A stretch of 64,000 bases of DNA. It comes from a virus. The notes under the pieces are model-generated. The model made no database searches and was not told where the DNA came from. It saw nothing but the letters and a program-made list of their open reading frames with translations. Below are positions 13,705 to 62,403 of this stretch, one piece after another; position 1 is the stretch's first letter; every line of letters begins with the position of its first letter. The stretch covers positions 1 to 64,000 of IMG/VR virus record IMGVR_UViG_3300018079_000001; one strand, written 5' to 3'. Both the position numbers and the translations under genes were made by a program.

Positions 13705-15045
13705 ATGCAAACAGCAGTCGGCAGTTTTGCGATTGGGGTAGGAGGCGTTGGCACAACCGTCACGGTTAGTGGTCTGCCATTTCAACCCAAGGCTGTCATC
13801 TTCTCGTGGTCTGGCCGCACGGCGGTAGGCCAGGCCGAGGCGGATCACAAGATGGGCGCGGGCTTCATGGTGAACGCCACCGAGCGAGGCGGCTCGGCGA
13901 CGGCCAGCATCAACGGGTTCGACATCACAGGCGCCAAGAATCGCTCGTTCTCCGACGCGTGTATCAAGATCATCGAGGCGTTCACTAACACAGTCGAAGG
14001 CGCAGCCGATTTCGACGCGTTCCTGTCTGATGGTTTCCGCGTCATAATCGACGATCAGTTCCCCGTGAGTTTCCTGATTAACTACATCGCGATCGGCGGC
14101 GCCGACCTGACGAACGTCAAGGCAATCACGATAACGCCTCCGGACGTTGACGGCGATCAGGACACGACGACCGTTGGATTCAAGCCCGACTGCGCGATGT
14201 TTTTCGGAGGGGCGGAAGTGACGACCAGTGGAAGCGGCTTGGGTTTTGGCGTGGCTGCACAGGACCCACCCGTGAACGCCGTCTTGGTGGGCAACGCGCG
14301 TGACGGTTTCACGACGACGGAGACGAAGTCTTACTGCCGGTTGGGCGACGAGTGCACAGCGGGGCGCCCAAACCCGGCAACGTTTGACATGCTGCGTCGG
14401 GGCAAGGTGACGAGTTGGCTGAGCAACGGCTTCCGCATGGCCTGGCTGGACACGTCTGTTCTTCAGCCAAATATTCAAGTTCTCTGCCTGAAGGGCGGCA
14501 CGTACGCGGTCGGCGACCTGCTGACGCGGACGGACGGGACGCCGTTCAGCGAGATGGGCCTGCCGTTCGAGCCGCGAGGGCTGATCTTCGCGTCGCACAA
14601 CAAGGCGCAGAGCGCGGCTGATACCGCTCAGGCTCTCGACGAGCGGTCCATTGGATTCGTTGCAAGTGCCACGCAGAGAAACTACGTCGGCGTACTTGAC
14701 AAGGATGCGATTCAGGTTGACCCAGGCCCCGGGGTGACCGAGGTTGGTGTAGCACATAATACAAACGAGTGTTATGTCAATCAGAGCACCGCCGCGACCA
14801 TCATCATCGAAGGATTGATGGATCTAACGTCGATGAACGCCGATGGTTTCACAGTCGTTATGAACGATCCGGACCCGGTGTCGTCCTTTGTGTGGTATCT
14901 TGCGATGGGTGACGGAGTTGTGGACGTAGGGGGGGGGGTTTCATCCAAACCAAAACAAAAACCGTCATCAGGTGCTTTGTGGGCTGCTATTCGTGAGCAA
15001 CTTCGCAGTGAACCAAAGAAGTATAAAAGACCTATGATTTTATGA
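13705..15045 (+). CDS. Fibre-like virion protein, paralog of the 10388 N-terminal region
   Basis: TVSGLPFQPKA, GFKPD, LPFEPRGL, DGF repeats. Confidence 0.6.
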   Translation: MQTAVGSFAIGVGGVGTTVTVSGLPFQPKAVIFSWSGRTAVGQAEADHKMGAGFMVNATERGGSATASINGFDITGAKNRSFSDACIKIIEAFTNTVEGAADFDAFLSDGFRVIIDDQFPVSFLINYIAIGGADLTNVKAITITPPDVDGDQDTTTVGFKPDCAMFFGGAEVTTSGSGLGFGVAAQDPPVNAVLVGNARDGFTTTETKSYCRLGDECTAGRPNPATFDMLRRGKVTSWLSNGFRMAWLDTSVLQPNIQVLCLKGGTYAVGDLLTRTDGTPFSEMGLPFEPRGLIFASHNKAQSAADTAQALDERSIGFVASATQRNYVGVLDKDAIQVDPGPGVTEVGVAHNTNECYVNQSTAATIIIEGLMDLTSMNADGFTVVMNDPDPVSSFVWYLAMGDGVVDVGGGVSSKPKQKPSSGALWAAIREQLRSEPKKYKRPMIL

Positions 15046-15869
15046 TTCCAAGCACCTACTGCGTAAGTAAACGCCACAAAGTGCTTTGGGCGACCATGAA
15101 CTTCCTGGCCGAGCGGGACAGGTGCGGCATCCGCACAAAGAAGTGGGATCGCCCTGTGATCAAGGAAACGGTGGACCGCCGCAAGCTGATCCTTGAACAC
15201 AACGCAGCCGACGTGTTCGCGGACGTATTCGATCGCCAGCGGAACGCCGTGCTTGACGTGTACCCATCGAAGCGGCGCATGAGCGAGGCCCTGCAAGAGA
15301 CGCGCGAAGCCTTAGAGCAGGCGTACTGGAAAGTGTACCTCGACACCGCGTCAAGCTACGGTCCGTGGGCGGCTCGGCACCTGGACGCGACGATGAAGGC
15401 TCCCGATCCGTTCCGTGATCCGATGGTGAACTGGCTTCGTGGCAACGCAGCGAGTCGCGTGGCAGACATCAACAAGACGACACGTGATCGGTTGCAGGTT
15501 ATCCTGGCCGAGGCGACCGAAGAGGGCGATAGCCTGCAAGAGACTGCGAGCCGGATCGACGATCTGTTCCTCGACGAGATCATTCCCAACCGAAGCATGG
15601 TGATCGCGCGGACCGAAGTCGGTAATGCGGCTAACTTCGCGGCGCACGAAGCGGCACAGGCGACGGGCGTGCCGATGGAAAAGACCTGGAACACACTCGG
15701 CGATCCGTTCGTGCGCGATATTCACGCGGACGCAGACGGGCAGACAGTCGAGATCAATCAGGACTTCACCGTGGGTGGCGAGTTCCTGGGCTGGCCAGGA
15801 GACATCAGTAAGGGAGCGAGTGCTGGCAACGTCATAAACTGCCGGTGCTTCTTGACGTACGACGTATGA
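15042..15869 (+). CDS. Phage head morphogenesis protein (MuF / SPP1 gp7 family)
   Basis: IN.TTR, RSMVIARTE...A.N, KTW...D..VR..H...DGQ, VINCRC. Confidence 0.92.
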   Translation: MIPSTYCVSKRHKVLWATMNFLAERDRCGIRTKKWDRPVIKETVDRRKLILEHNAADVFADVFDRQRNAVLDVYPSKRRMSEALQETREALEQAYWKVYLDTASSYGPWAARHLDATMKAPDPFRDPMVNWLRGNAASRVADINKTTRDRLQVILAEATEEGDSLQETASRIDDLFLDEIIPNRSMVIARTEVGNAANFAAHEAAQATGVPMEKTWNTLGDPFVRDIHADADGQTVEINQDFTVGGEFLGWPGDISKGASAGNVINCRCFLTYDV

Positions 15870-18800
15870 TCTACAATCGTACCCCGGACTACGTGATCAA
15901 GACCGCGCTCGACAAGAGCGACGGAATCATGGTGGCACTCAAGGTGCCCACCGACGCTGCCCGTCTGCTCGCGCTCGAAGGTGGACAGCCGCCAGAGGAC
16001 TTGCACCTGACACTCGCTTACCTTGGCAAGCGTGACGAGTTCACGCCTGAGCAATTGGGTACGCTACACGACATTGTCGGAGCCATAGCGCGCACAAGTC
16101 AGCCTGTCGAGACGCAAGTTCGCGGGTATGACGTGTTCCCCGACACCGACGACGGTCCGTGCCTATACGCGACGGTGGACACGACGCAATCGCTCCTGGA
16201 CCTGCAAGAGACGGTCGTCGAGGCTGTGTCGTCCTATGGCATGCCGCCACAGGGCAAAGGACAAAGCAACGGGCGGTGGATTCCCCATATCACTCTGGCG
16301 TACCGGGAGAGTGCTTCCCCGCCTGACGTGCCGCCTGTATCTGACCTGACTTTCGATTGGCTTCGCGTCGCGCTAGGCAGCACCGAGGCACTGATGCGTC
16401 TGAAGAAGTTCGAGGGCGCCATTGCGGCGCAGCCGGAACTGAAGCGGCCAGAGGACACGAAGGAAGAGAACTTCCTGAAGGGCGCAACGACCACGAGCAC
16501 CATGGACAGCGGCGGGCGCATCGCACCGGGCCAGGGCAGGTTCCGCCGCATCAAGGACAGCGGCGGGCTCACGGCACCCACGGACGGTGGTGAAGTTAAC
16601 CCGTTACACTTGGTGCCGCGCCGGCCGAAGCGCACGGGTGAGGGCACCGAGGCGTACACGGCATCGAACGAGATATACACACCGACGCCCGGCCTCATGA
16701 AAACCATCACGAAGGTAGGCAAGGCGGTCGCGATCGACTTCGATGGTACGATAACGCTCGACGAGAAGGGCACCGAGAATCCGAAGATGCGGCGGCTGGT
16801 AGACATGCTCCTAAGCAACGGGGTCCGTGTGGTGATCTTCACCGCGCGCCCCGGCGCCGAAGTTCACGCGTGGCTGCGCGAGCATGCCTGGCCGTCGCTC
16901 GAAGTGACAGATCGCAAGTCACCTGATTTCGCTGTGTACCTGGACGATCGAGCCGTGGGTTTCTCCCCGGACAAGGTTGGACAAGGGCTTGCGCAGGAGT
17001 TGGCCGAATTCAAGACATGGTGGGAAAAGAGTGCGAGCGACATGGGTGCACAGCCAGAGACGCGCGATCGTCTGGCGAAGCTGCCGGCCGTGGCGATCAC
17101 GAACGCCGAAAATAACACCGCTGAATGGAACGAAGCCATGCACCCGCGTACGGCTGCGGGTACCGCTGAGGGCGGTCAGTTTGCGGCTGCGGGCGGTGGC
17201 AATGCTGCTACACCGGCTGATGCGCCGAAGGGCGATGCCGACCAGGAACACCGCGCACAGCGGGCGCGTGAGTGGAACAAGCAACATCCTGACGATCAGG
17301 TGCCGATACCTGGCGACAAGCCGAAGACTCCTACTGAAGATCAGGCAAGACAAGCGGCGCAGCATCAGTGGCGCGAGGGTAACCCCGAGCGAGCAGCCGC
17401 CGCTGATCGGTGGAACGCTGAGCATCCGGGTGAAGAGCCCGCGAAGCCGGGCGGCACGGCCAGGACTGACCGTACCGACGAAGCTGCGGCGTGGGTCTTG
17501 GCACATCAAGGAGTACCGGGAGCATTTGCTGACGATTGGGCGAAGCCCGCACAGGTAGGCGACACGTTGCCGGGCGGTGGACGTGTGCAGCCGGGCGACT
17601 TGGGCACAGAAGAGAACAAGCCACTGGCCCCTGGTTTGCCAACCGATCAGTTGGGCAAGGAACCGCGCGTGGGGATGCCGGGCGGCGGTACGACGCCGAC
17701 ACCGGAGTCTGTGCCTGGCACCCCGCCGACGCCTGAGTCGTGGGGTGATCTGAACGCCGATCAGCAGGACAAAGCGCTCGTCGCCTGGAAGAATGCAGCG
17801 CGTGATGACTTCATGCAGATGGAACGAGAGGGTTGGGAGGAAGACGAATCCAACTTCGAGCACGTGCCGAAGGACTTGCAGGGCAATCCGGAGTGGAACG
17901 AACAAGCGCTCAAGGACATCAACAACGGGTTCTATCCGGGCGATCCTGTCGAGGGTCTTGACGACCAGGGCGGCGGAACACCGGCCGCACATGCTGAGCA
18001 AGAGCGACGCATTGCTGAGTGGCGTGATAGCTTCGCGATTGACGACTCGATCAAGGCAGGCGCGTTCTCTGTGGATACTGGTGCGGTGGGCGCACTCGAA
18101 GTCAATACCGACTTGCTTGTGTTCAAGGACAATCCGTACACCGAAGACTCGGGACAGCAGATGCTCCCCGGCATCGACCGTGAGATGATGTACAAAGAGT
18201 TCAACAAGCAGAAGTGGGCCACAGTCAAGTCTGATTTCGAGGAGAGGTATAAGGAAGCGTTCGACACGGAAGTCGAGAAGCGCGTTGACATGATCAAGGA
18301 GAATCCGCCCACGTTTGACGTGAACGAGCGGATGGGTGACTATTGGGACGAGATGGACGACAAAGAGAAGTTCAAGCAGGCGCAGGAGCATCTGCCTAGT
18401 AGCGATCTGCGTGGTGGTGGTACAAGCAGTGAAGGTAGTCAGGGCGAGGGCGAAAAGGGAACAGTTGGACCAGACAAAGAATACGACACGAAAGAACAGA
18501 AAACAATTCAGAGTAAGAAACCAACAACTAAGAAAAATCTCGGTGGTGGTGTCAGCGAATCAAAGGTAGTCACAATGGCTGACGGTTCAAAGTACGTGTG
18601 GAAACCTTCTACTGGAGAGGCCAATGTCCGTGACGGTATCAATGCTGGTGTACAGTACCAGCGAGAAGTTGCGGCTTACGATATCGGACGCATCGTCGGG
18701 ATGAAAAACTTTATGCCAGTTGCGTCCATCTTCAAGTATGAAGGCAATTACGGTACAATGATGGAGATGATTCCGGACGCCGACAACGACGGTAAGAGCG

Positions 18801-19183
18801 GGGATGATGACTTCGCTGATAGTGCTTTGCGAGGTACATTCTTTGATTTCATTATCGGCAACACTGACCGCCACGGTGGAAACTGGATGTCCGACGACGA
18901 TGGCAAATTGTGGTTGATTGATAACGGGTTGTCTTTCTCTGAAGACAAAGCCGAAACAGCACGTTTCGGTATGTGGAGTAAAGTCGATCACGGTGCAGGC
19001 GAAGATGATGAAATTCCCGAATCAATAAAGAAGCCGTGGAAGGGGAAATGGTCGAAGATCAAGGAAGCAATGGAGCGGCGCAAGATCAGTACAAAAGCAA
19101 TGAGGTACGTCGAAGAGCGTTATAAAAAAGCCATAGAAGATGGCGTGACGTGGAAAGACTTGGGCGTGGAGGGGGCATTTTGA
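15866..19183 (+). CDS. Head-associated polyprotein 1: 2H phosphoesterase + HAD-like phosphatase + HPR motif + shared helical domain + C-terminal PI3/4-kinase/HipA-like kinase
   Basis: LHLTLAY/PHITLAY; AIDFDGT..IFTAR..YLDDRA; WNEAMHPR..GGQF; KYVWKP..REVAAY..FDFIIGNTDRHGGN..LIDNGLSF. Confidence 0.85.
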   Translation: MIYNRTPDYVIKTALDKSDGIMVALKVPTDAARLLALEGGQPPEDLHLTLAYLGKRDEFTPEQLGTLHDIVGAIARTSQPVETQVRGYDVFPDTDDGPCLYATVDTTQSLLDLQETVVEAVSSYGMPPQGKGQSNGRWIPHITLAYRESASPPDVPPVSDLTFDWLRVALGSTEALMRLKKFEGAIAAQPELKRPEDTKEENFLKGATTTSTMDSGGRIAPGQGRFRRIKDSGGLTAPTDGGEVNPLHLVPRRPKRTGEGTEAYTASNEIYTPTPGLMKTITKVGKAVAIDFDGTITLDEKGTENPKMRRLVDMLLSNGVRVVIFTARPGAEVHAWLREHAWPSLEVTDRKSPDFAVYLDDRAVGFSPDKVGQGLAQELAEFKTWWEKSASDMGAQPETRDRLAKLPAVAITNAENNTAEWNEAMHPRTAAGTAEGGQFAAAGGGNAATPADAPKGDADQEHRAQRAREWNKQHPDDQVPIPGDKPKTPTEDQARQAAQHQWREGNPERAAAADRWNAEHPGEEPAKPGGTARTDRTDEAAAWVLAHQGVPGAFADDWAKPAQVGDTLPGGGRVQPGDLGTEENKPLAPGLPTDQLGKEPRVGMPGGGTTPTPESVPGTPPTPESWGDLNADQQDKALVAWKNAARDDFMQMEREGWEEDESNFEHVPKDLQGNPEWNEQALKDINNGFYPGDPVEGLDDQGGGTPAAHAEQERRIAEWRDSFAIDDSIKAGAFSVDTGAVGALEVNTDLLVFKDNPYTEDSGQQMLPGIDREMMYKEFNKQKWATVKSDFEERYKEAFDTEVEKRVDMIKENPPTFDVNERMGDYWDEMDDKEKFKQAQEHLPSSDLRGGGTSSEGSQGEGEKGTVGPDKEYDTKEQKTIQSKKPTTKKNLGGGVSESKVVTMADGSKYVWKPSTGEANVRDGINAGVQYQREVAAYDIGRIVGMKNFMPVASIFKYEGNYGTMMEMIPDADNDGKSGDDDFADSALRGTFFDFIIGNTDRHGGNWMSDDDGKLWLIDNGLSFSEDKAETARFGMWSKVDHGAGEDDEIPESIKKPWKGKWSKIKEAMERRKISTKAMRYVEERYKKAIEDGVTWKDLGVEGAF

Positions 19184-21666
19184 AAGTTACCGTAATCGGC
19201 TACTCGGGCAACGATCACATTGTTATTGGTGAGCTACGTGTACTCGGTGGCAAAATTGTCGTCGCGCCGAATCCTCACTACCGAAATCAAGATCGCGCCC
19301 GTAAAATACTAGAGTCGATTGCAACTGACCCTGTACGGTGGGCTGGACAAAAAATCGGTCCGGACAAAGTACAGGTGTTTATGAATCTGTTGCATACGCA
19401 GTATAGTGGCTCGTACTTGCGTGTTACTAAGCCGGAGATTGACAGCCTGAAGAAGTGGGATGAAGCTGACCATCCGCGCGTGGGCTCTGGCGAACACGGT
19501 GGCGAGTTCACGTCTGGTGGTGGCGGTGGAGCGGGAGCGGCTGACGACACGAAATCCTGGACGAAGGACAAGGCCCCGGCAGACCAGGAGCGCGCTGCGA
19601 AGTTGGAAACGGAGCGACAGACGGCGGTCGGCAACGTCGAGAAGCTGGTGTCAGGCGTAACCGGCTCCGACGAGAGTGGTCAGGCGTTGACGAGTCCGTC
19701 CCAAGTCAAGACGTGGGCGAACATGCCGCAAGAGTGGCAGGGGCACGCGGCGAACGGATTCATCAGTGACTACGTCAATGGCAACATGCCCGCCAGTGAA
19801 GAGTGGCAATCCAAACCCCACACGTGGGACCAGGTGCCGCAAGATTGGAAGGACAAGGGCAAAGCGGACTATCTGACCGGGTACGCTGTTGGTGATAGCC
19901 CTACGCCCGCTGCTCTTGCCGAGGGCGTGGCGAATTGGGAGAAGATGCCCGATCAGGAAAAGCTGGAATACTCACAGCAGATGTACAACCAAAATGCTGC
20001 AAAGGAACGGCAGAGACTCACTGACGAGGCGGGCAGCCTGTGGGGTGACATGGGCGACGAGGGTAAGCTAAACTTCGCGCAAACCGAGGCGAAGGACTTC
20101 CCTGAGTTAGCGGTCGAGGAAGATGACCCTGACTCCGACGAGCCGCCGAGTGAAATGTCTGTTGATGATTTCGGTGATTGGGACGGGCTTCCGAGCGACT
20201 GGCAGGAGAAGACAAAAGAGAAGTGGATGGAGGACTCCTACGCCGAGTTCGAGCAGAGCGAGAAGGAATCATTCGAGCCCGACCGCGACTACCACGAAGA
20301 GCGCGTCTCCGAGGACGAGGATGCGGTGCACGCCCTGATCAAGGAAATTCCCGAGGAAAACTACATCTACCCTGGCATGGGCGAGTACGAGACACCGGAG
20401 GATGCGGAGGAAGGTGGAGCCGAGGACAAACGCCGCGAGAAAGAGTGGCAGGAAAACTTCGACCTGAAGGCGTCGGTCGATGACGGCGCGTTCACCTGGG
20501 ACAAAAATGGCGAACTGACTGTGGATACTGACAGGTTGGTCTTCCACAAAAATCCTCACGAGGATGACGCGCAGCAGATGATCCCTGGCGTTGATCGCGC
20601 GGAGTTGTCGAACGCGTACAAGAAAAGCCAGTGGGAAGGCGTTGCTCGGGACTACGAAAAAGAGTTCAAGGCGAAGTTCGAGAAGGCCGTCGAGAAGAGC
20701 ATGGAGGAAGAGTCCGAGAACTACGAACCGGACAAATCCTCTGTCGAAGAGTACATGGAGCAGCAGTGGGATGACGGCTTTAGCGACAAGCAGAAGTTCA
20801 AGCACGCGCAGAACTACCTGTCTGACGAGACGGTCGAGAGTGATCAAGAATCGACAGCAGGCAGTGGTGGACCAATCCGCATACCGAAAGCCTTCGAGTT
20901 GTTCAGCGGCGAAGACGAAAAGAACCCTGGCGACTACAAGATGACCGGGCGCCTGGGTCGTGCGCTCACCATCGCCCGTGCCGAGCAGATTGCGAAAGAA
21001 CGCGGCATCGAGGATTTTGGTGGTGTCAGTTCGATGGAGAGTTTGGGCAACACGCTGTGGGAGGGCTGGAAAGGTTCGTCCACAAACAGCCACGGTAAGT
21101 TGCTTCAGGTTGCGTCGGCGGACGAGTTGGGCGGCAATTTGCAACCGTGGCTCGCTGAGGAAGCAGACGCGATTCGCAAGAACAGAGGATACCCGGCCGC
21201 AAAGGCATACGTGCGCGGGCTGTGGGAAACTTCACAGTACCTCATGCACAAGGCGGGCATGAAGGAACTGGACATATACCGGGGCATCATGGTGGACGGC
21301 GACAAGTTGGCAGCAGAAAAAACCGAGCGCGTCGTGGTACACGGCAACGATATGGAGCGTATTGCAGAAAAGCACTTCGACCAGAACGGAGCCGCGTCGT
21401 TCACAATGAAGCGCGACGTGGCAAACGGCTGGAACGGCATCGGGCACAACATGCCGCCGAACCCGAAGCGGGTCGTGCTTCGCGCTCGTGTCCCTTTAAC
21501 GGCTGTGCTTGCGCTGCCCGCGTATGGCAAGAACTACCACGAGGAAAAGGAAGTCGTCGTGGTTGGCACCCCGTGGAAGAAGTGGGACGCCTGGAAGCAC
21601 AAGGCCCCGACGATTGGGGAGACGGAATCAGACGTAGCGCTCAAATGGAGGACGGCTCGTGCTTGA
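19180..21666 (+). CDS. Head-associated polyprotein 2: small N-terminal domain + HPR motif + shared helical domain + C-terminal ADP-ribosyltransferase-like domain
   Basis: TTG start with RBS GGAGG; WDEADHPR..GGEF; IYRG, ASFT, HEEKEVVV (R-S-ExE). Confidence 0.75.
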   Translation: MKVTVIGYSGNDHIVIGELRVLGGKIVVAPNPHYRNQDRARKILESIATDPVRWAGQKIGPDKVQVFMNLLHTQYSGSYLRVTKPEIDSLKKWDEADHPRVGSGEHGGEFTSGGGGGAGAADDTKSWTKDKAPADQERAAKLETERQTAVGNVEKLVSGVTGSDESGQALTSPSQVKTWANMPQEWQGHAANGFISDYVNGNMPASEEWQSKPHTWDQVPQDWKDKGKADYLTGYAVGDSPTPAALAEGVANWEKMPDQEKLEYSQQMYNQNAAKERQRLTDEAGSLWGDMGDEGKLNFAQTEAKDFPELAVEEDDPDSDEPPSEMSVDDFGDWDGLPSDWQEKTKEKWMEDSYAEFEQSEKESFEPDRDYHEERVSEDEDAVHALIKEIPEENYIYPGMGEYETPEDAEEGGAEDKRREKEWQENFDLKASVDDGAFTWDKNGELTVDTDRLVFHKNPHEDDAQQMIPGVDRAELSNAYKKSQWEGVARDYEKEFKAKFEKAVEKSMEEESENYEPDKSSVEEYMEQQWDDGFSDKQKFKHAQNYLSDETVESDQESTAGSGGPIRIPKAFELFSGEDEKNPGDYKMTGRLGRALTIARAEQIAKERGIEDFGGVSSMESLGNTLWEGWKGSSTNSHGKLLQVASADELGGNLQPWLAEEADAIRKNRGYPAAKAYVRGLWETSQYLMHKAGMKELDIYRGIMVDGDKLAAEKTERVVVHGNDMERIAEKHFDQNGAASFTMKRDVANGWNGIGHNMPPNPKRVVLRARVPLTAVLALPAYGKNYHEEKEVVVVGTPWKKWDAWKHKAPTIGETESDVALKWRTARA

Positions 21667-24088
21667 GATAGAACTGGACAAACCTGGCGACCCTCACTGG
21701 CTGTCCAAGCCGAAGAAGCTGCGCAAGTTCGACCCGAGTCAGCAGCGTGACGAGGACGGCAAATGGTCGGAGACGGGTGCGGGAGGTGGCGCGACCACCG
21801 AACCGAAGGGCAGCGCAGGTCACGGATACGAGGCCCCGAAGGGGCAGGCTAGCTTACCGGCCGAAGCCAAGGACATCGCGGACGAATACGATTCCGCCCC
21901 CGAGATCGGACCAGGCGCAAAGGAAGCGTGGGCGAAGCTGTCGGCTGACATTGACCGGGACTTCGCCGAGATCACCAAGACGGTTGCAGTCGAGAAGGTC
22001 ACAGGTCAGCCGTACTCGTCGATCGACGAGATGTTCGCCGACATCGACGCTGGCCGCTTCAAGGTGACGACCGACTACTCGCAGCATCCGCTGTGGTCGG
22101 AGGATCAGAACTGGAAGTTTCGTGTGGTGCATGACTACTACGGACACTACAAGACGGGCGACAAGAGCGTGGACTTCTCGCTGGAAGGCGAACGTAGCGC
22201 GTTCTTGAGCCAGGCGCAACGGTCAAGCGACCTGGACGCGCGTCGGGCGTTGCAGACCGAAGTATACGGGCAAGCATCCGCGTTCTACAAGAACGGTGCA
22301 TTTGGCAAGCAGAAGGTGTATCTGCCGGGAGCGGACGTTGCGGAGCGGTGGACCGCGCCGGCAGCGCAGGACTTCATCACGGCGCGTGACCGGAACCCTC
22401 GGGGGGACTTCTTCTCGCACCTGGAGCCGGGCGACCTGAAAGGCTACAAGCTGATCATGAATGAGTCGCACTCGGCGGGAGCGGCCGTTGCGCCCGATGG
22501 CGACATTCAGAACGTGTTCCGCAACCCCAACTCGCCGAAGGGTGCCGGGACAGCCGCATTGCACGAGGCTGTACGGCAGGGCGGGCTGATGCTCGACGCG
22601 TACGAATACGAGACTCCGGGTCAGCCGGGCCTGCCAGACGTGTACCGCAAGGCGGGGTTCGTCGAGACGGGCCGCATGAAGTTCAACCCGGCGTACCGTC
22701 CAGCCTGGGGACCAGAGCGGCGGCCAGATGTTGTGTTCATGGCTTACGTGGGTGGCGATCAATCGAAGTCGCCGAAGTCAGACCACTACTACCAGCCGCA
22801 CGAATGGGATCGTGCTAAGAAGGAATCCCTGGCCTCGGCCGATGCGCCAGGCGAGAGCGAAATAGCACGGCAACTGCGTGAGCAGCGCTCCCGTCGCGCA
22901 TATCAGGATGTGAACAGGCCGAAGCTGCCGCCAGAGGTAGATCAGGCACTGAGAGGGCTCGGCAAGTCAGTGCTCTCGTCCAAGGACCGTGAGGACCTGA
23001 AAATCAAAACGAACAAAAAGAAGTGGGGTGGTCGGCCACATGTCTTCACTGCCGCCGAGTGGACGCACCCGAACGGACATCCGCGCTGCGTTCGTTGCGG
23101 CGACGAGGAACCGAGTGACGGGCTGTGTATGCCGGAGTTGCTGAAGTGGGCAACCATGCTCGATGTTGCCATGTCTGGCACTCATCAGGTGGATAGTGGT
23201 AAAATAAAAGAGAAGGGAACCTTCATGTCGAAGAGTTGGATCGCAGAGTTTCATGCCGATTGCATCACAAAGGGAGCCGCCTGCTCCGTGAAGTGGCCAG
23301 TGTGCCCCGAGAAGAAAGCTGCCGTCGAGAAGTACATCCGCGAAGAGGGTGGGAAGTTCAACGTCTACTCCGAGGACGGCAAGAAACTCGGCACGCATTC
23401 GACCCGAGCCGAGGCCGCCGCGCAGCTTCGCGCAATCGAGGCGAACAAGGACGCGACGCGCGGATATCCCGAGTTGGGTGTACCTCCGGCTCCAGTCGCG
23501 ATGAAGGCATTGCAGGGTGCATGGAACGCGTACGCGAAGTCGGTCGGGATCGTGTTCAAATCTGAGGAAGTTCAAGCTGAGCCGGTCGAAAAGGGCGTGT
23601 ACCGAGTCGCGGCTCCGGGCGGGAAGTGGGTATACTTCGCGGTCGAGGGTGACCAAGCGGGGCGGGTCGAGTATCAGCGGAAGAACGGTATGCTGGCCCC
23701 GGTGGTGAAGGCCGAGAAGCAGCGCTATACCCTCGGCGCCGTGTACGCGCCGGGTGAGACGGATTTTCATGGCGACACCATGACCGAAGTCGAATTGGAA
23801 AAGGCGGCGTGGGCGTTCGCACAGAAGGACGGGCTCACGGGCCGCGTCGGGCTCATGCACCAATCAGGCACGGAAAAAGCGGGCAAGGTAGTCGAGTCAT
23901 ACGTCTACCGTGGTCCGGTGTGGAAGTTCAAGGACACCTCGGGTGTGACTCAGACGATCACACCGGGCACGTGGATGCTCGGTGTCGTGTGGGAACCGGA
24001 GGGCTGGAATCAAATCGAACGTGGCAGCGTGCGGGGTTATTCACTCCAAGGGGTTGCCCGCAAGTTCGCCAATGGGGAGGAAGTATAA
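21659..24088 (+). CDS. Head-associated polyprotein 3: HDxxGH domain + GNAT-like domain + Zn finger + C-terminal XkdF-type prohead serine protease
   Basis: FRVVHDYYGH; GDIQNVF..KGAG..GG.MLDAY..YRKAGF; protease GAVYAPG..D.HGD, MH, VVESY, GTWMLG, GYSLQG. Confidence 0.8.
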   Translation: MLEIELDKPGDPHWLSKPKKLRKFDPSQQRDEDGKWSETGAGGGATTEPKGSAGHGYEAPKGQASLPAEAKDIADEYDSAPEIGPGAKEAWAKLSADIDRDFAEITKTVAVEKVTGQPYSSIDEMFADIDAGRFKVTTDYSQHPLWSEDQNWKFRVVHDYYGHYKTGDKSVDFSLEGERSAFLSQAQRSSDLDARRALQTEVYGQASAFYKNGAFGKQKVYLPGADVAERWTAPAAQDFITARDRNPRGDFFSHLEPGDLKGYKLIMNESHSAGAAVAPDGDIQNVFRNPNSPKGAGTAALHEAVRQGGLMLDAYEYETPGQPGLPDVYRKAGFVETGRMKFNPAYRPAWGPERRPDVVFMAYVGGDQSKSPKSDHYYQPHEWDRAKKESLASADAPGESEIARQLREQRSRRAYQDVNRPKLPPEVDQALRGLGKSVLSSKDREDLKIKTNKKKWGGRPHVFTAAEWTHPNGHPRCVRCGDEEPSDGLCMPELLKWATMLDVAMSGTHQVDSGKIKEKGTFMSKSWIAEFHADCITKGAACSVKWPVCPEKKAAVEKYIREEGGKFNVYSEDGKKLGTHSTRAEAAAQLRAIEANKDATRGYPELGVPPAPVAMKALQGAWNAYAKSVGIVFKSEEVQAEPVEKGVYRVAAPGGKWVYFAVEGDQAGRVEYQRKNGMLAPVVKAEKQRYTLGAVYAPGETDFHGDTMTEVELEKAAWAFAQKDGLTGRVGLMHQSGTEKAGKVVESYVYRGPVWKFKDTSGVTQTITPGTWMLGVVWEPEGWNQIERGSVRGYSLQGVARKFANGEEV
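23196..23213 (+). promoter_or_regulatory. Promoter motif A copy 3, internal to polyprotein 3, before in-frame ATG 23225
   Basis: GTGGTAAAATAAAAGAGA followed by AGGGA and an in-frame ATG. Confidence 0.65.
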
Positions 24089-26194: not shown

Positions 26195-27187
26195 ATGCAG
26201 ATTCAACGGTGGCTCGAAAAGGCAACCTGGACGACTCCCGACATCACGTCTCCGGCTGGTGGCGGGTTGCTCTCCCCGCAACAGGCGCGTGAGTTCCTTC
26301 GCGTCCTGATCGACGAGAGTGTACTGCTTCGAGAGGCGAATAACCAGACTTCGCTCTCGCCGAAGTTCGAGGTTCCCCGGATCAGCTTCGGAGCCCGCAT
26401 CCTCCATGCCGGTGTCGAGGCGACTCGTTCGACTTCCGCTCAGCGTGTGAAGCCGGCAACGGGGCTCGTGACGCTTTCGACCAACCTCTTCAAGGGTGAA
26501 ATCGAAGTGTCGGACGAGATGTTCGAGGACAACATCGAGCGCGACGCGCTCGCGGACACGATCATGGTCATGCTGGCCGAGGCTGTCGGGCGTGACATCG
26601 AGGAGTACGTGATCAAGTCGGACACGGCCCGTACGGCTGCGGACGGCGCGGACTTCCCGGTCCTGGACCAGTTCGATGGGATGGTCAAACAGCTTCAGAC
26701 CAACCTGCCGGCTGCTCAGAAGGTGGACGCTGCTGCGATCGGTTCGTACGACGAGTTGTACCGGAAGATGATCAATCGTCTGCCAGCGCGGTATCGCCGC
26801 GACATGACGGCTCTTCGCCTGTACGTTCCCGTGAAGCACGGTGACGGCTACCAGACGGAGTTGGCTGGACGCGGCACTCCGCTAGGTGACACGAACGTCA
26901 TCGAGAACCTTCGGCTCAAGCTGGCTTTCCGAGGCGTGCCGGTCGTTCCGGTTCCGCTGATGACGGGTCAGTCCACGGTCGCTGGTGCTGCGATCGACTA
27001 CGACAACTTCGCGATCCTGACGCACCCGCTGAACCTGTACATCGGTTGGCATCGGCGCATTCGGGTCGAGCGGTGGCGCGATCCTCGGGACGGCGCGACC
27101 AGTTTCCTTCCGAGCATGCGCGTGGACGCGAAGTACGCGGACCCCGACTTCGGCGTGCTCGCGTTCAACATCGGCTTGGGTGTCTAA
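26195..27187 (+). CDS. Major capsid protein (HK97 fold, XkdG-like)
   Basis: GGLLSPQQA..F, EVSDEMFEDNIE, DIEE..I..DT, ILTHP.NL..G. Confidence 0.92.
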   Translation: MQIQRWLEKATWTTPDITSPAGGGLLSPQQAREFLRVLIDESVLLREANNQTSLSPKFEVPRISFGARILHAGVEATRSTSAQRVKPATGLVTLSTNLFKGEIEVSDEMFEDNIERDALADTIMVMLAEAVGRDIEEYVIKSDTARTAADGADFPVLDQFDGMVKQLQTNLPAAQKVDAAAIGSYDELYRKMINRLPARYRRDMTALRLYVPVKHGDGYQTELAGRGTPLGDTNVIENLRLKLAFRGVPVVPVPLMTGQSTVAGAAIDYDNFAILTHPLNLYIGWHRRIRVERWRDPRDGATSFLPSMRVDAKYADPDFGVLAFNIGLGV

Positions 27188-62124: not shown

Positions 62125-62403
62125 ATGGACATTGAACTGGACAAACCTGGCGACCCTCACTGGCTCTCAAAGCCAAAACCACCCGTGTGCTCGTGCGAGT
62201 TGGACCGCGCACCGACGTGGCGTGACGGCAAGCGGCTGGACCGTACACCGATCGCGAAGTTGTGCCCGATGCACGCGGCGGCACCGCGAGCGCTCAAGCT
62301 GCTCGCTGAGGTTCCAGCACTGGAGTCTGATTTGTCAGGGTGCGATGTTGCCTGGCAGAAGAAGGTGCGGGACCTGTGGCGCGACTTGGGGGTGACACAA
62401 TGA
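62125..62403 (+). CDS. Hypothetical protein starting with the IELDKPGDPHWLSKPK peptide shared with polyprotein 3
   Basis: RBS GGGAGG; CSC...LCPMHAAAP..L..L. Confidence 0.6.
   Translation: MDIELDKPGDPHWLSKPKPPVCSCELDRAPTWRDGKRLDRTPIAKLCPMHAAAPRALKLLAEVPALESDLSGCDVAWQKKVRDLWRDLGVTQ

Follow-up and report, generated by a model that had tools for sequence, protein, structure and literature searches.

A duplicated acidic domain preceding kinase and ADP-ribosyltransferase tips in a head-gene operon of a soil phage

A chain of three large proteins encoded among the head genes of an uncultured soil phage was analyzed in a window of 64,000 nucleotides (positions 1 to 64,000 of IMG/VR record IMGVR_UViG_3300018079_000001), which belongs to a complete viral record of 102 kb with terminal repeats (101.8-kb genome). 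The MuF gene is followed on the same strand by the genes for polyproteins 1, 2 and 3, and the overlap found at every junction indicates translational coupling (Table 1). The ATG of polyprotein 1 overlaps the MuF stop as ATGA and is also the start of the database copy P0006 (1105 aa). Polyprotein 2 starts at a TTG that forms TTGA with the stop of polyprotein 1, has GGAGGGGG as its Shine-Dalgarno sequence and shares this start with the database copy P0005 (828 aa), and polyprotein 3 uses a GTG start with a GGAGGA Shine-Dalgarno sequence in overlap with the end of polyprotein 2. The MuF protein, which additionally matched head-morphogenesis and portal PHROG families (best E 7e-42), carries no tag and terminates before the effectors, which are thus separate reading frames. 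Pfam and PHROG matches place the array between head genes, namely those of MuF, the XkdF-type protease and the capsid protein, as the original prediction of an array behind MuF had it, and the last protein of the array itself ends in the protease domain, which lies two genes 5' of the capsid gene and whose family phrog_3017 is annotated as a head maturation protease. The 446-aa reading frame just 5' of MuF gave no match in Pfam, PHROG or PDB sequence searches, and the portal gene of this phage was not recognized by any sequence search run.

Table 1. Positions of the genes, domains and motifs of the array and its head-gene surroundings in the window.
Feature	Position	Strand	Evidence
446-aa reading frame just 5' of MuF, portal candidate by position only	13705..15045	+	stop/MuF-start overlap ATGA
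MuF-type minor head protein, 275 aa	15042..15869	+	PF04233 E 3.2e-13, 50.8 bits vs 29.6-bit cut-off
Polyprotein 1: 2H, HAD, tag, Pro-rich linker, shared domain, kinase	15866..19183	+	Pfam, PHROG
2H (LigT-type) phosphoesterase module	15911..16405	+	PF13563 E 6.9e-12, PF02834 E 9e-08, both above cut-off
HAD-like phosphatase module (likely)	16679..17032	+	phrog_1238 E 4.5e-12; D-x-D-G-T motif
Tag 1, W-N-E-x-x-H-P-R ... G-G-Q-F, then Gly run	17126..17182	+	regex
Shared acidic helical domain, copy 1	17741..18394	+	BLASTP; pI 4.3
PI3K/PI4K-like kinase tip	18482..19180	+	PF00454, 36.3 bits vs 27.1-bit cut-off
Polyprotein 2: kinase-partner domain, tag, Trp-rich acidic linker, shared domain, ART	19180..21666	+	
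Small ~90-aa domain (p3N), predicted cognate kinase partner	19180..19455	+	linkage, predicted complex
Tag 2, W-D-E-x-x-H-P-R ... G-G-E-F, then Gly run	19456..19509	+	regex
Shared acidic helical domain, copy 2	20179..20820	+	BLASTP; AlphaFold2 mean pLDDT 88, pTM 0.76
R-S-ExE ADP-ribosyltransferase (ART) tip	20872..21663	+	invariant motifs, predicted fold
Polyprotein 3: tag, unknown domain, GNAT-like, Cys-rich region, XkdF-type prohead protease	21659..24088	+	Pfam, PHROG
Tag 3, variant F-D-P-S-Q-x-R-D-x-x-G-K-W, then Gly run	21728..21766	+	regex
Domain of unknown function	21857..22321	+	phrog_3170 E 1.9e-18
GNAT-like module, putative	22355..22792	+	phrog_2563 E 5e-7
XkdF-type prohead serine protease domain	23708..24067	+	PF14550 E 1.1e-20, 74.3 bits vs 24; phrog_3017 E 1e-22
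Major capsid protein (context)	26195..27187	+	PF05065 E 5e-7; phrog_1623 E 2.6e-66

Additional cargo had been predicted to include 2H phosphoesterase, HAD and GNAT-like modules. The first is confirmed by the PF13563 match together with both H-x-T motifs visible in the translation; no Acb1-family match was obtained in the source phage, and the relative L038 does carry Acb1. The HAD assignment is likely, resting on phrog_1238 and the D-x-D-G-T motif, with a score of 19.2 bits against PF08282 that falls just below the 20.9-bit cut-off, and the same module recurs in P0007, P0009 and P0010. The GNAT-like identity is weakly hinted at: the module is present in 12 loci, none of whose members matched Pfam, and its profile met the GNATs of the PDB at E 0.2-0.7.

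The short tag with its H-P-R core was matched only three times in six frames of the entire genome, once in each polyprotein, and the variant found in polyprotein 3 is common among the relatives. In all of these relatives the tag stands at module joints, and in nearly all it lies 5' of the shared domain. A motif had been expected before each cargo block; this fails in polyprotein 1 for the 2H and HAD modules and in polyprotein 2 for the N-terminal 92 residues, all of which lie 5' of the first motif of their protein.

BLASTP of polyprotein 1 against polyprotein 2 returned a single strong alignment, of residues 633-867 with residues 344-574 (243 columns, 35% identical, E 6e-28), and the paralogous domain was recovered at exactly the predicted positions, the segments quoted in the prediction lying within the alignment. 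This domain of about 215 aa stands directly before the kinase in polyprotein 1 and directly before the ART in polyprotein 2, again as foreseen, and no copy was found in polyprotein 3. An exhaustive profile search combined with contig scans placed it in over 60 loci from phages and metagenomes as well as in Bradyrhizobium prophages. It is widespread in soil phages and in these prophages; five other phage records hold one copy each (four of them 98-100% complete according to CheckV, one 70%). All 29 of 29 members have a pI of about 4.1 and a net charge of about -32 over some 200 residues. The adaptor role considered below does not account for this extreme acidity. The AlphaFold2 model is largely helical, and Trp, Pro and a Q-x-x-L-P-G loop are conserved, as is an exposed loop. 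The claim that the domain is undescribed stands: neither it nor the tag matched any Pfam family across 29 members, including the families built from the study of Iyer et al., and the domain is without a counterpart in the PDB and BFVD and matches no known fold clearly. Its best VIA match is an HMG box (Z 7.3, rmsd 1.3 A), an alignment that covers only 53 residues and lies within the noise for helical models.

The usual layout in the relatives consists of the tag, a short helix, an acidic linker, the shared domain and an R-S-E ART, and the domain ends 20-30 residues before the tip in every case. Among the tips listed across the relatives, about 46 non-redundant cases are ARTs of this same family, and about 16 are tails of some 55 aa without an enzyme; a kinase is found in 2 cases plus three kinase-bearing database representatives, all restricted to the lineage of the source phage, and the others are a DRAT-like ART and two unknown tips. 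The C-terminus following the domain is therefore not always the same, as had been anticipated. The notion of a freely swapping carrier was nevertheless not sustained, given that the domain is normally single-copy and is followed by the same ART family in most phages. On the domain tree, a quick search in which many forks are weakly supported, tip classes are clustered, with 13 changes of class against 28.5 expected with shuffled labels, and a single clade of 8 (SH-aLRT 98), in which kinase bearers and ART bearers are intermingled, contains both copies of the source phage. Tip swaps are thus real but rare, and the two copies arose by a lineage-specific duplication.

The tail-only forms occur in genomes without this ART family, from which it follows that the domain probably has a role of its own. 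A function of its own explains such forms no less well than a carrier role does. This distribution, together with the single-copy state, the helical make-up and the uniform negative charge, is what would be expected if the domain were itself the effector, an acidic decoy or DNA mimic of the Ocr/ArdA type directed on entry against host DNA-binding defence or nucleoid proteins, with enzymes merely fused to it. We regard this as unlikely, because fold searches of the PDB and BFVD matched it to no DNA mimic and to no other protein, the conserved Trp, Pro and Q-x-x-L-P-G loop suggest specific contacts beyond a charge pattern, and the fixed place between tag and tip suggests a structural role.

The kinase tip had been described as PI3K/HipA-like, and it is the PI3K/PI4K side of that description that was substantiated. 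The PF00454 cut-off is passed, the kinase relatives score 33-44 bits against the same family, and the family profile finds Vps34, PI3K and PI4K in the PDB (E 2e-6), that is, lipid-kinase-type cores and not HipA, with HipA_C appearing as a faint match in one kinase relative only. The Lys for ATP, a Glu, D-R-H-x-x-N and the I-D-x-G motif with its metal-binding Asp are invariant among 6 sequences whose identity falls to as little as 26%. Behind the kinase gene, every kinase locus has the partner domain, which is found in four different fusion states. GC content is 0.476 in the kinase and 0.493 in the partner versus about 0.60 in the flanks, and the drop (0.46-0.50) is confined to these two. A complex of the two was predicted with a score of 0.83, which expresses model confidence on author-built shallow alignments of 6 rows, the best of three controls scoring 0.00; 58 of 80 solved complexes attain the mark applied, as do 2 of 110 mismatched pairs. 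The runs share at least 96% of contacts with a partner pLDDT of at least 85, and since the partner has no detectable sequence relative among PDB chains, a pass from model memory is less likely. In the predicted complex a conserved loop of the partner sits in the active site, and the contacts involve the Gly loop, the lysine for ATP, D-R-H-x-x-N and I-D, so that the partner is predicted to plug the nucleotide-binding and catalytic cleft of the kinase.

PF00454 PI3K/PI4K-like kinases and HipA belong to the same superfamily, and HipA/HipB and HipT/HipS are kinase toxins with a small protein antidote. The present locus resembles them in pairing a kinase of this superfamily with an adjacent small protein, here predicted to occupy the active site, and the idea of a cassette of kinase plus immunity has gained support from the linkage and the modelled complex. 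It differs in that the partner lies on the downstream side, frequently forms part of another protein and has no detectable sequence similarity to any solved chain. This separate predicted inhibitor also bears on whether the shared domain could be a cis-acting pro-domain or chaperone, by which, in the cell that makes it, the toxic tip would be held folded yet inactive up to the cleavage step. The constant distance of 20-30 residues to the tip and the conserved exposed loop, which could be a cut site, are compatible with such a role; yet the domain also precedes unrelated enzymes (ART and kinase) and a non-enzymatic tail of 55 aa, and the kinase would already be held by its own plug, which makes the role quite improbable.

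The tip of polyprotein 2 is the R-S-ExE ART that had been proposed, as judged from invariant motifs and the predicted fold. Its catalytic residues occur in the expected order (R711, S750-x-T752 and E799-x-E801) and were invariant first in 5 relatives and subsequently in 23, in the latter as Y-R, N-G-A-A-S-x-T and E-x-E. The model (pLDDT 86.8) found the Vis toxin as its best Foldseek match (E 1e-3, probability 0.99), and R-S-E ARTs filled all of the top 25 rows of the VIA comparison (Z 4.8-6.3, rmsd 3.9-5.1 A over 141-177 residues); as these Z values are modest, it is the agreement among the rows, along with the motifs, that carries the modelled R-S-E ART fold. No match to PF18760 was obtained in Pfam, and on the 3' side of the ART no partner domain like that of the kinase was seen.

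The relatives connect the array with the virion. In three phages the unit of tag, domain and ART is fused to the portal protein (L007, L024 and L003, Phage_portal_3 E 1e-94, 2e-65 and 2e-38, respectively), and these fusions argue for a location inside the capsid. The tag is retained in the portal-fused forms, where a pure targeting signal would be redundant. In other relatives the gene with the shared domain lies among genes for terminase, a protease-capsid fusion and portal; ART-PolyVal, NUDIX and Acb1 modules are carried as well, and some relatives are prophages. That the polyproteins are never packaged, acting instead as late cytoplasmic enzymes or as scaffold-like helpers that are degraded by the protease and do not reach the next host, is very unlikely. 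Acidic helical proteins beside protease and capsid genes are indeed typical of scaffolds, and the portal of the source phage escaped recognition; against this stand the covalent portal fusions and an enzyme set (2H, Acb1, ART, kinase, NUDIX) that is known as injected anti-host cargo (PMC5512222).

Among known systems, the array fits the class of polyvalent proteins (Iyer, Burroughs, Anand, de Souza and Aravind 2017, PMC5512222), in which, as here, several effector enzymes (2H, ART, kinase, GNAT-like, peptidase) are borne by one polypeptide. The class calls for at least two unrelated domains per polypeptide, and here 2H, HAD-like and kinase domains are found in polyprotein 1, ART in polyprotein 2, and the protease plus further modules in polyprotein 3. 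The likeness extends to a phage-encoded location among virion genes, to the portal-fused relatives and to the ART-PolyVal, NUDIX and Acb1 modules of the relatives. The class is known, whereas the shared domain, the tag and the predicted kinase plug appear to be new: the acidic domain and the tag lack a Pfam family, the ART lacks PF18760, and the PI3K/PI4K-like kinase belongs neither to the truncated Ser/Thr/Tyr-kinase clade nor to the zeta-like kinase described by those authors (PMC5512222).

MuF-linked polymorphic toxins (Jamet et al. 2017, PMC5576092), which had been named beside polyvalent proteins as the likely class, share with the array a MuF gene at its head, variable C-terminal toxin-type domains including ART, a candidate protective partner after one tip, and an occurrence of some relatives as prophages. 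In the strict sense they do not apply: an N-terminal MuF joined to a C-terminal toxin in one protein was not found, MuF being here a separate 275-aa protein without a fused toxin; the tips sit on a different conserved domain and are rarely swapped, and the candidate partner is fused to the next cargo protein in place of forming a free gene. T4 Alt and internal proteins (PMC3012670) and the Dar proteins of phage P1 (PMC12810830) are head-packaged, protease-processed and injected. They resemble the array in that an ART and further anti-host proteins are encoded with head genes, a short conserved peptide precedes the cargo and a prohead protease belongs to the same operon, and no sequence or fold relation between the array and these proteins was found. 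The tag, whose role is putative, differs from the T4 capsid targeting sequence and is internal as well as N-terminal.

Taken together, we favor, with a probability of roughly 0.6, a head-assembly operon with polyvalent cargo in which the duplicated domain serves as an adaptor. MuF and three polyvalent cargo proteins, the last ending in the prohead protease, would be produced by translational coupling, and the shared domain, comparable to the pre-toxin domain of polymorphic toxins, would link an element that anchors the protein in the head or targets it there (portal or short tag) with a C-terminal effector that can be exchanged. After duplication, one copy would have kept the ancestral ART and the other would have acquired the PI3K/PI4K-like kinase, which may have arrived in an AT-richer cassette that included the predicted plug. 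The polyproteins would then be loaded into the procapsid and cut by the XkdF-type protease at or near the tags, whereupon the kinase may lose its plug, the cargo would be ejected with the DNA, and host targets would be phosphorylated and ADP-ribosylated.

A more elaborate scheme, possible albeit doubtful, is that delivery is armed by maturation. The HPR tag would be a peptide that loads cargo into HK97-fold phage capsids in general, as the cargo peptides of encapsulins do, the acidic domain would be an ejectable stalk bearing interchangeable enzymes, and the kinase would travel with a pseudosubstrate-like plug that the protease would cut at the tag inside the capsid, so that kinase activity would not set in before the next host is reached.

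Proteins that a phage injects along with its DNA act ahead of any phage gene expression and are prime candidates for counter-defence and host takeover. The locus offers three apparently undescribed parts, namely a widespread acidic domain that holds effectors, a short tag confined to cargo, and a kinase with a built-in predicted plug, which forms with its partner a candidate new pair resembling toxin and antidote. If the tag or the domain directs capsid loading, this could explain how cargo is packed in phages without MuF or portal fusions, and would provide a possible handle for putting chosen proteins into phage heads.

The 15042-24088 region is a real, well-preserved locus of phage polyvalent (predicted cargo) proteins situated within a MuF-protease head operon. 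The source record, IMGVR_UViG_3300018079_000001 from an uncultured soil phage, comprises 101,821 bp with direct terminal repeats and a completeness rating of 100%, and its first 64 kb constitute the window. The region holds four + strand genes, each junction of which is overlapping, namely the MuF gene and the genes of three long multi-domain proteins termed polyproteins 1, 2 and 3. The ORF just upstream of MuF is regarded as a portal candidate purely by position, and neither this ORF nor the large one in the expected terminase/portal area had a sequence match in Pfam, PHROG or PDB. Among cultured phages (50,697 phage records), zero matches were returned by megablast with the region and by tblastn with polyprotein 2.

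Genes of the head operon and neighbouring ORFs in the window
Feature	Coordinates (nt)	Strand	Remarks
ORF, 755 aa	10388-12655	+	large ORF in the expected terminase/portal area
ORF, 446 aa	13705-15045	+	just before MuF, where a portal is expected
MuF gene	15042-15869	+	PF04233, E 3e-13
Polyprotein 1	15866-19183	+	ATG start at 15866, ATGA overlap
Polyprotein 2	19180-21666	+	TTG start at 19180, TTGA overlap, ribosome site GGAGGGGG
Polyprotein 3	21659-24088	+	GTG start at 21659; XkdF-type prohead protease at its end (PF14550, E 1e-20)
Major capsid gene	start 26195		downstream of polyprotein 3

The array and its relatives share their domain repertoire and gene context with the polyvalent proteins described by Iyer et al. 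(PMC5512222). The original prediction had spoken of MuF-linked polymorphic toxins and polyvalent proteins; the polyvalent type is upheld by domains and context, but the locus is not, strictly speaking, a polymorphic toxin fused to MuF, since MuF is a separate gene here. In addition, an identical 16-residue peptide, reported at 21668-21715 and 62131-62178, was present in both translations when checked; the first site is close to the polyprotein 3 start, and the second, 40 kb away, close to that of a small, unrelated + strand ORF.

Polyprotein 1 contains a 2H module (PF13563, E 7e-12) with two H-x-T motifs and a HAD-like module, which matched a PHROG at E 4.5e-12 and carries a D-x-D-G-T motif, its Pfam score being slightly below the cut-off. 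The kinase tip that ends polyprotein 1 exceeded the gathering score of PF00454, and a six-row kinase profile retrieved the cores of Vps34, PI3K and PI4K from PDB at E 2e-6; even where identity falls to 26%, the ATP lysine, the helix glutamate, D-R-H-x-x-N and I-D-x-G are all unchanged. Assignment of the tip of polyprotein 2 as an ADP-ribosyltransferase (ART) is based on motifs and predicted fold instead of a sequence match, because the sequence search of Pfam and the sequence profile against PDB gave nothing. Its Y-R, N-G-A-A-S-x-T and E-x-E motifs are invariant in 23 relatives, and its model (pLDDT 86.8) had the Vis toxin as the top Foldseek match (E 1e-3, probability 0.99). In the VIA comparison, rows 1-25 were all R-S-E ARTs (Z 4.8-6.3, rmsd 3.9-5.1 A over 141-177 residues), including iota Ia, Vis, C2-I, CDTa, C3, VIP2, ExoS/T and ART2.2. 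The assignment of a module of polyprotein 3 as GNAT-like is tentative. A sub-family of the ARTs (loci L040-L046 and database proteins P0018-P0027) was seen to bear insertions of ~100-300 residues within the catalytic domain, which split the profile match into three to five pieces.

A paralogous domain common to polyproteins 1 and 2 had been claimed at 17741-18394 and 20179-20820, and BLASTP of the two proteins gave one strong match exactly there (residues 633-867 and 344-574, 35% identity, E 6e-28), while no copy was found in polyprotein 3. The yield of searches for this shared domain varied with the query. A word-based protein search with a single copy recovered only the source protein itself, and the two-row alignment gave zero matches when viral contigs were scanned with it; full HMMER with the two-row profile against 1.84 billion representatives yielded 13 proteins, and the word-based search with a 29-row profile at longer lengths found at least 11, which were ART-bearing. 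In pattern scans, the ART-bearing alignment detected 47 viral loci and the kinase-bearing one 12, and patterns of the shared domain only gave 49 viral plus 11 metagenome loci. Three genome loci came from Bradyrhizobium elkanii, Bradyrhizobium sp. and a Xanthobacteraceae MAG, the carriers in Bradyrhizobium being prophages, and one further match, partial and weak, from a haloarchaeon. Exactly one copy was present in each of five other phage records (72-96 kb; CheckV completeness 98-100% for four and 70% for one), and two copies per genome are therefore the exception.

The module that follows the shared domain, here called the tip, was ART in 46, kinase in 2 and other in 18 of the non-redundant ORFs from all loci, 3 more being cut by the contig end; among database representatives, kinase was found in three and ART in four. 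Sixteen of the 18 other ORFs finish in a common conserved tail of ~55 residues that is no enzyme, and one runs on for 640 residues, via a further copy of the tag motif, into unknown sequence. A database protein of 3141 aa carries two shared domains, whose tips are a DRAT-like ART (PF07357, E 3.6e-7) and an unknown 330-residue module. The C-termini thus differ from protein to protein, as the notion of swappable tips had implied. An ART of this family was absent from two complete tail-class genomes searched in full. In the tail class (L083, L068, L098, L099, L097 and L112), a conserved domain of ~130 residues was seen immediately before the shared domain; by eye it looks GNAT-like, with a G-x-G-x-G-K motif and an end rich in aromatic residues, and the Pfam search of this domain in L097 was empty. 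The enzyme position in this class may perhaps be N-terminal rather than C-terminal to the shared domain. A role of the shared domain as a cis pro-domain is considered unlikely.

Swapping is nevertheless rare rather than free. In a maximum-likelihood tree built by a quick search from 85 shared-domain sequences, in which many forks are weak, the tip class requires 13 changes, against 28.5 with shuffled labels. The tail class forms a single loose group, and both copies of this phage fall in one clade of eight (SH-aLRT 98), made up of three ART bearers and the full set of five kinase bearers. In L050, L051 and L053, which are close relatives, the single copy is kinase-bearing. On our reading, ART is the usual partner of the shared domain and probably the older one, and the domain itself is probably a conserved structural adaptor that rarely changes partner.

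The shared domain is strongly acidic in all 29 aligned members, with a mean pI of 4.14 and a mean net charge of -32. Its AlphaFold2 model is mostly helical (pLDDT 88, pTM 0.76), and a conserved inter-helix loop, Q-x-x-L-P-G-I/V-E/D, was modelled with moderate confidence. Pfam gave no consistent family for the 29 members, Foldseek against PDB and BFVD returned nothing under E 1, and the ESM Atlas offered no usable match, in keeping with the earlier description of the domain as undescribed. The best matches of the VIA wide search were HMG boxes (Z 7.3, rmsd 1.3 A over 53 residues), which falls inside the noise range stated for helical models. A DNA-mimic-like effector, which the acidity would suit but which these structure searches do not bear out, is considered unlikely, and the structural adaptor is preferred.

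The context in relatives bears on where these proteins act. In L007, L024 and L003, a single ORF comprises Phage_portal_3 (E 1e-94, 2e-65 and 2e-38), the tag, the shared domain and ART in order, and such fusions are evidence for a capsid location. In L078 and L096 the order is terminase, this gene, a protease-capsid fusion and then the portal, and in L101 it comes after the portal, ahead of GNAT and NUDIX-DUF2213 proteins. A non-packaged helper protein, against which these portal fusions speak, seems improbable. Modules upstream of the shared domain in relatives include Acb1 (E 5.5e-44), an anti-CBASS nuclease, together with ART-PolyVal, FAD oxidoreductase, histidine phosphatase and NUDIX. A single 1921-aa ORF (L038:624-6386) was observed to combine a FAD/NAD oxidoreductase, the tag, this Acb1, the shared domain and an insertion-bearing ART. 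Separately, a C-R-C motif seen by eye had raised the suspicion of a MuF fusion in L023 and L031, which neither Pfam nor a BLASTP comparison with this phage's own MuF supported.

The tag is a short motif of the form [W/F]-[D/N]-E-x-x-H-P-R, followed after a few residues by G-x-F and a Gly run, or of the variant form F-D-P-x-x-x-R-D-x-x-G-K-W. It occurs at module joints in all relatives, with up to five copies per protein, and almost every complete ORF has one form or the other ahead of its shared domain. When all six frames of the 101.8-kb genome were searched, it was located at three sites only, one in each of the three polyproteins. The motifs expected at 17126, 19456 and 21728 are indeed there; the claim that each cargo block is preceded by one fails for the 2H and HAD modules and for residues 1-92 of polyprotein 2, which precede the first motif. 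The carriers include protease-bearing polyprotein 3, and a prohead protease must enter the procapsid. The tag is still present in portal-fused forms, which argues that it is more than a pure targeting signal, and a role as a processing site would be equally possible. Pfam assigned no family to five 50-residue tag fragments, and the literature search found no description of it. Between the tag with its Gly run and the shared domain, a helix (V-G-G-D-E-W-N-K ... R-L-E-R-E-Y-Q) was noticed in most ART-class proteins, such as L009, L012 and L014; its conservation after the tag implies that tag, helix, acidic linker and domain are conserved as one unit. In polyprotein 3, a short module at 23306-23455 (phrog_3684, E 1.8e-8) follows a Cys-rich stretch and shows a tag-like R-E-E-G-G-K-F segment, then a small conserved region.

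As had been noticed, AT is enriched in the kinase tip and at the beginning of the gene that follows: the GC content is 0.476 for the tip and 0.493 for the partner region, with flanks of ~0.60 on either side and recovery at the second tag. At every kinase locus this partner, a domain of ~90 aa, comes next after the kinase gene. Its fusion states are four: in this phage it opens polyprotein 2, the ART protein; in L050-L053 it is joined to the protease protein; in L054 it opens a 380-aa protein, with a kinase that is only 26% identical and lacks the shared domain (E 3e-6); and in L055 and L056 it is a free 89-aa ORF. The predicted kinase-partner complex scored 0.83, 0.85 and 0.83 in three runs, made with shallow input alignments, against 0.00 for the best control; of 80 solved complexes 58 reach this level, and of 110 mismatched pairs 2 do. 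Contacts agreed between the runs to at least 96%, and partner pLDDT was at least 85. The partner has no sequence relative in PDB, which makes it less likely that the score stems from model memory, and the prediction supports kinase-partner binding. In the partner loop Y-S-G-S-Y, both Tyr and the Gly are invariant, and position 4 is S, T, S, S, A and A in six sequences; in the models this loop contacts the Gly-rich loop, the ATP lysine, D-R-H-x-x-N and the I-D aspartate of the kinase. Our reading of these models is that the partner may plug the active site, as an antidote or a pseudosubstrate would, and it might be cleaved off at the tag that follows it.

The new elements of this locus are the acidic shared domain, which appears undescribed as far as the searched sequence and structure libraries show, the tag, which is in no searched paper or library, and the predicted kinase plug. 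In this lineage, the ART behind the shared domain would have been replaced by a kinase, and the duplication of the shared domain in this phage would preserve ART and kinase alike.
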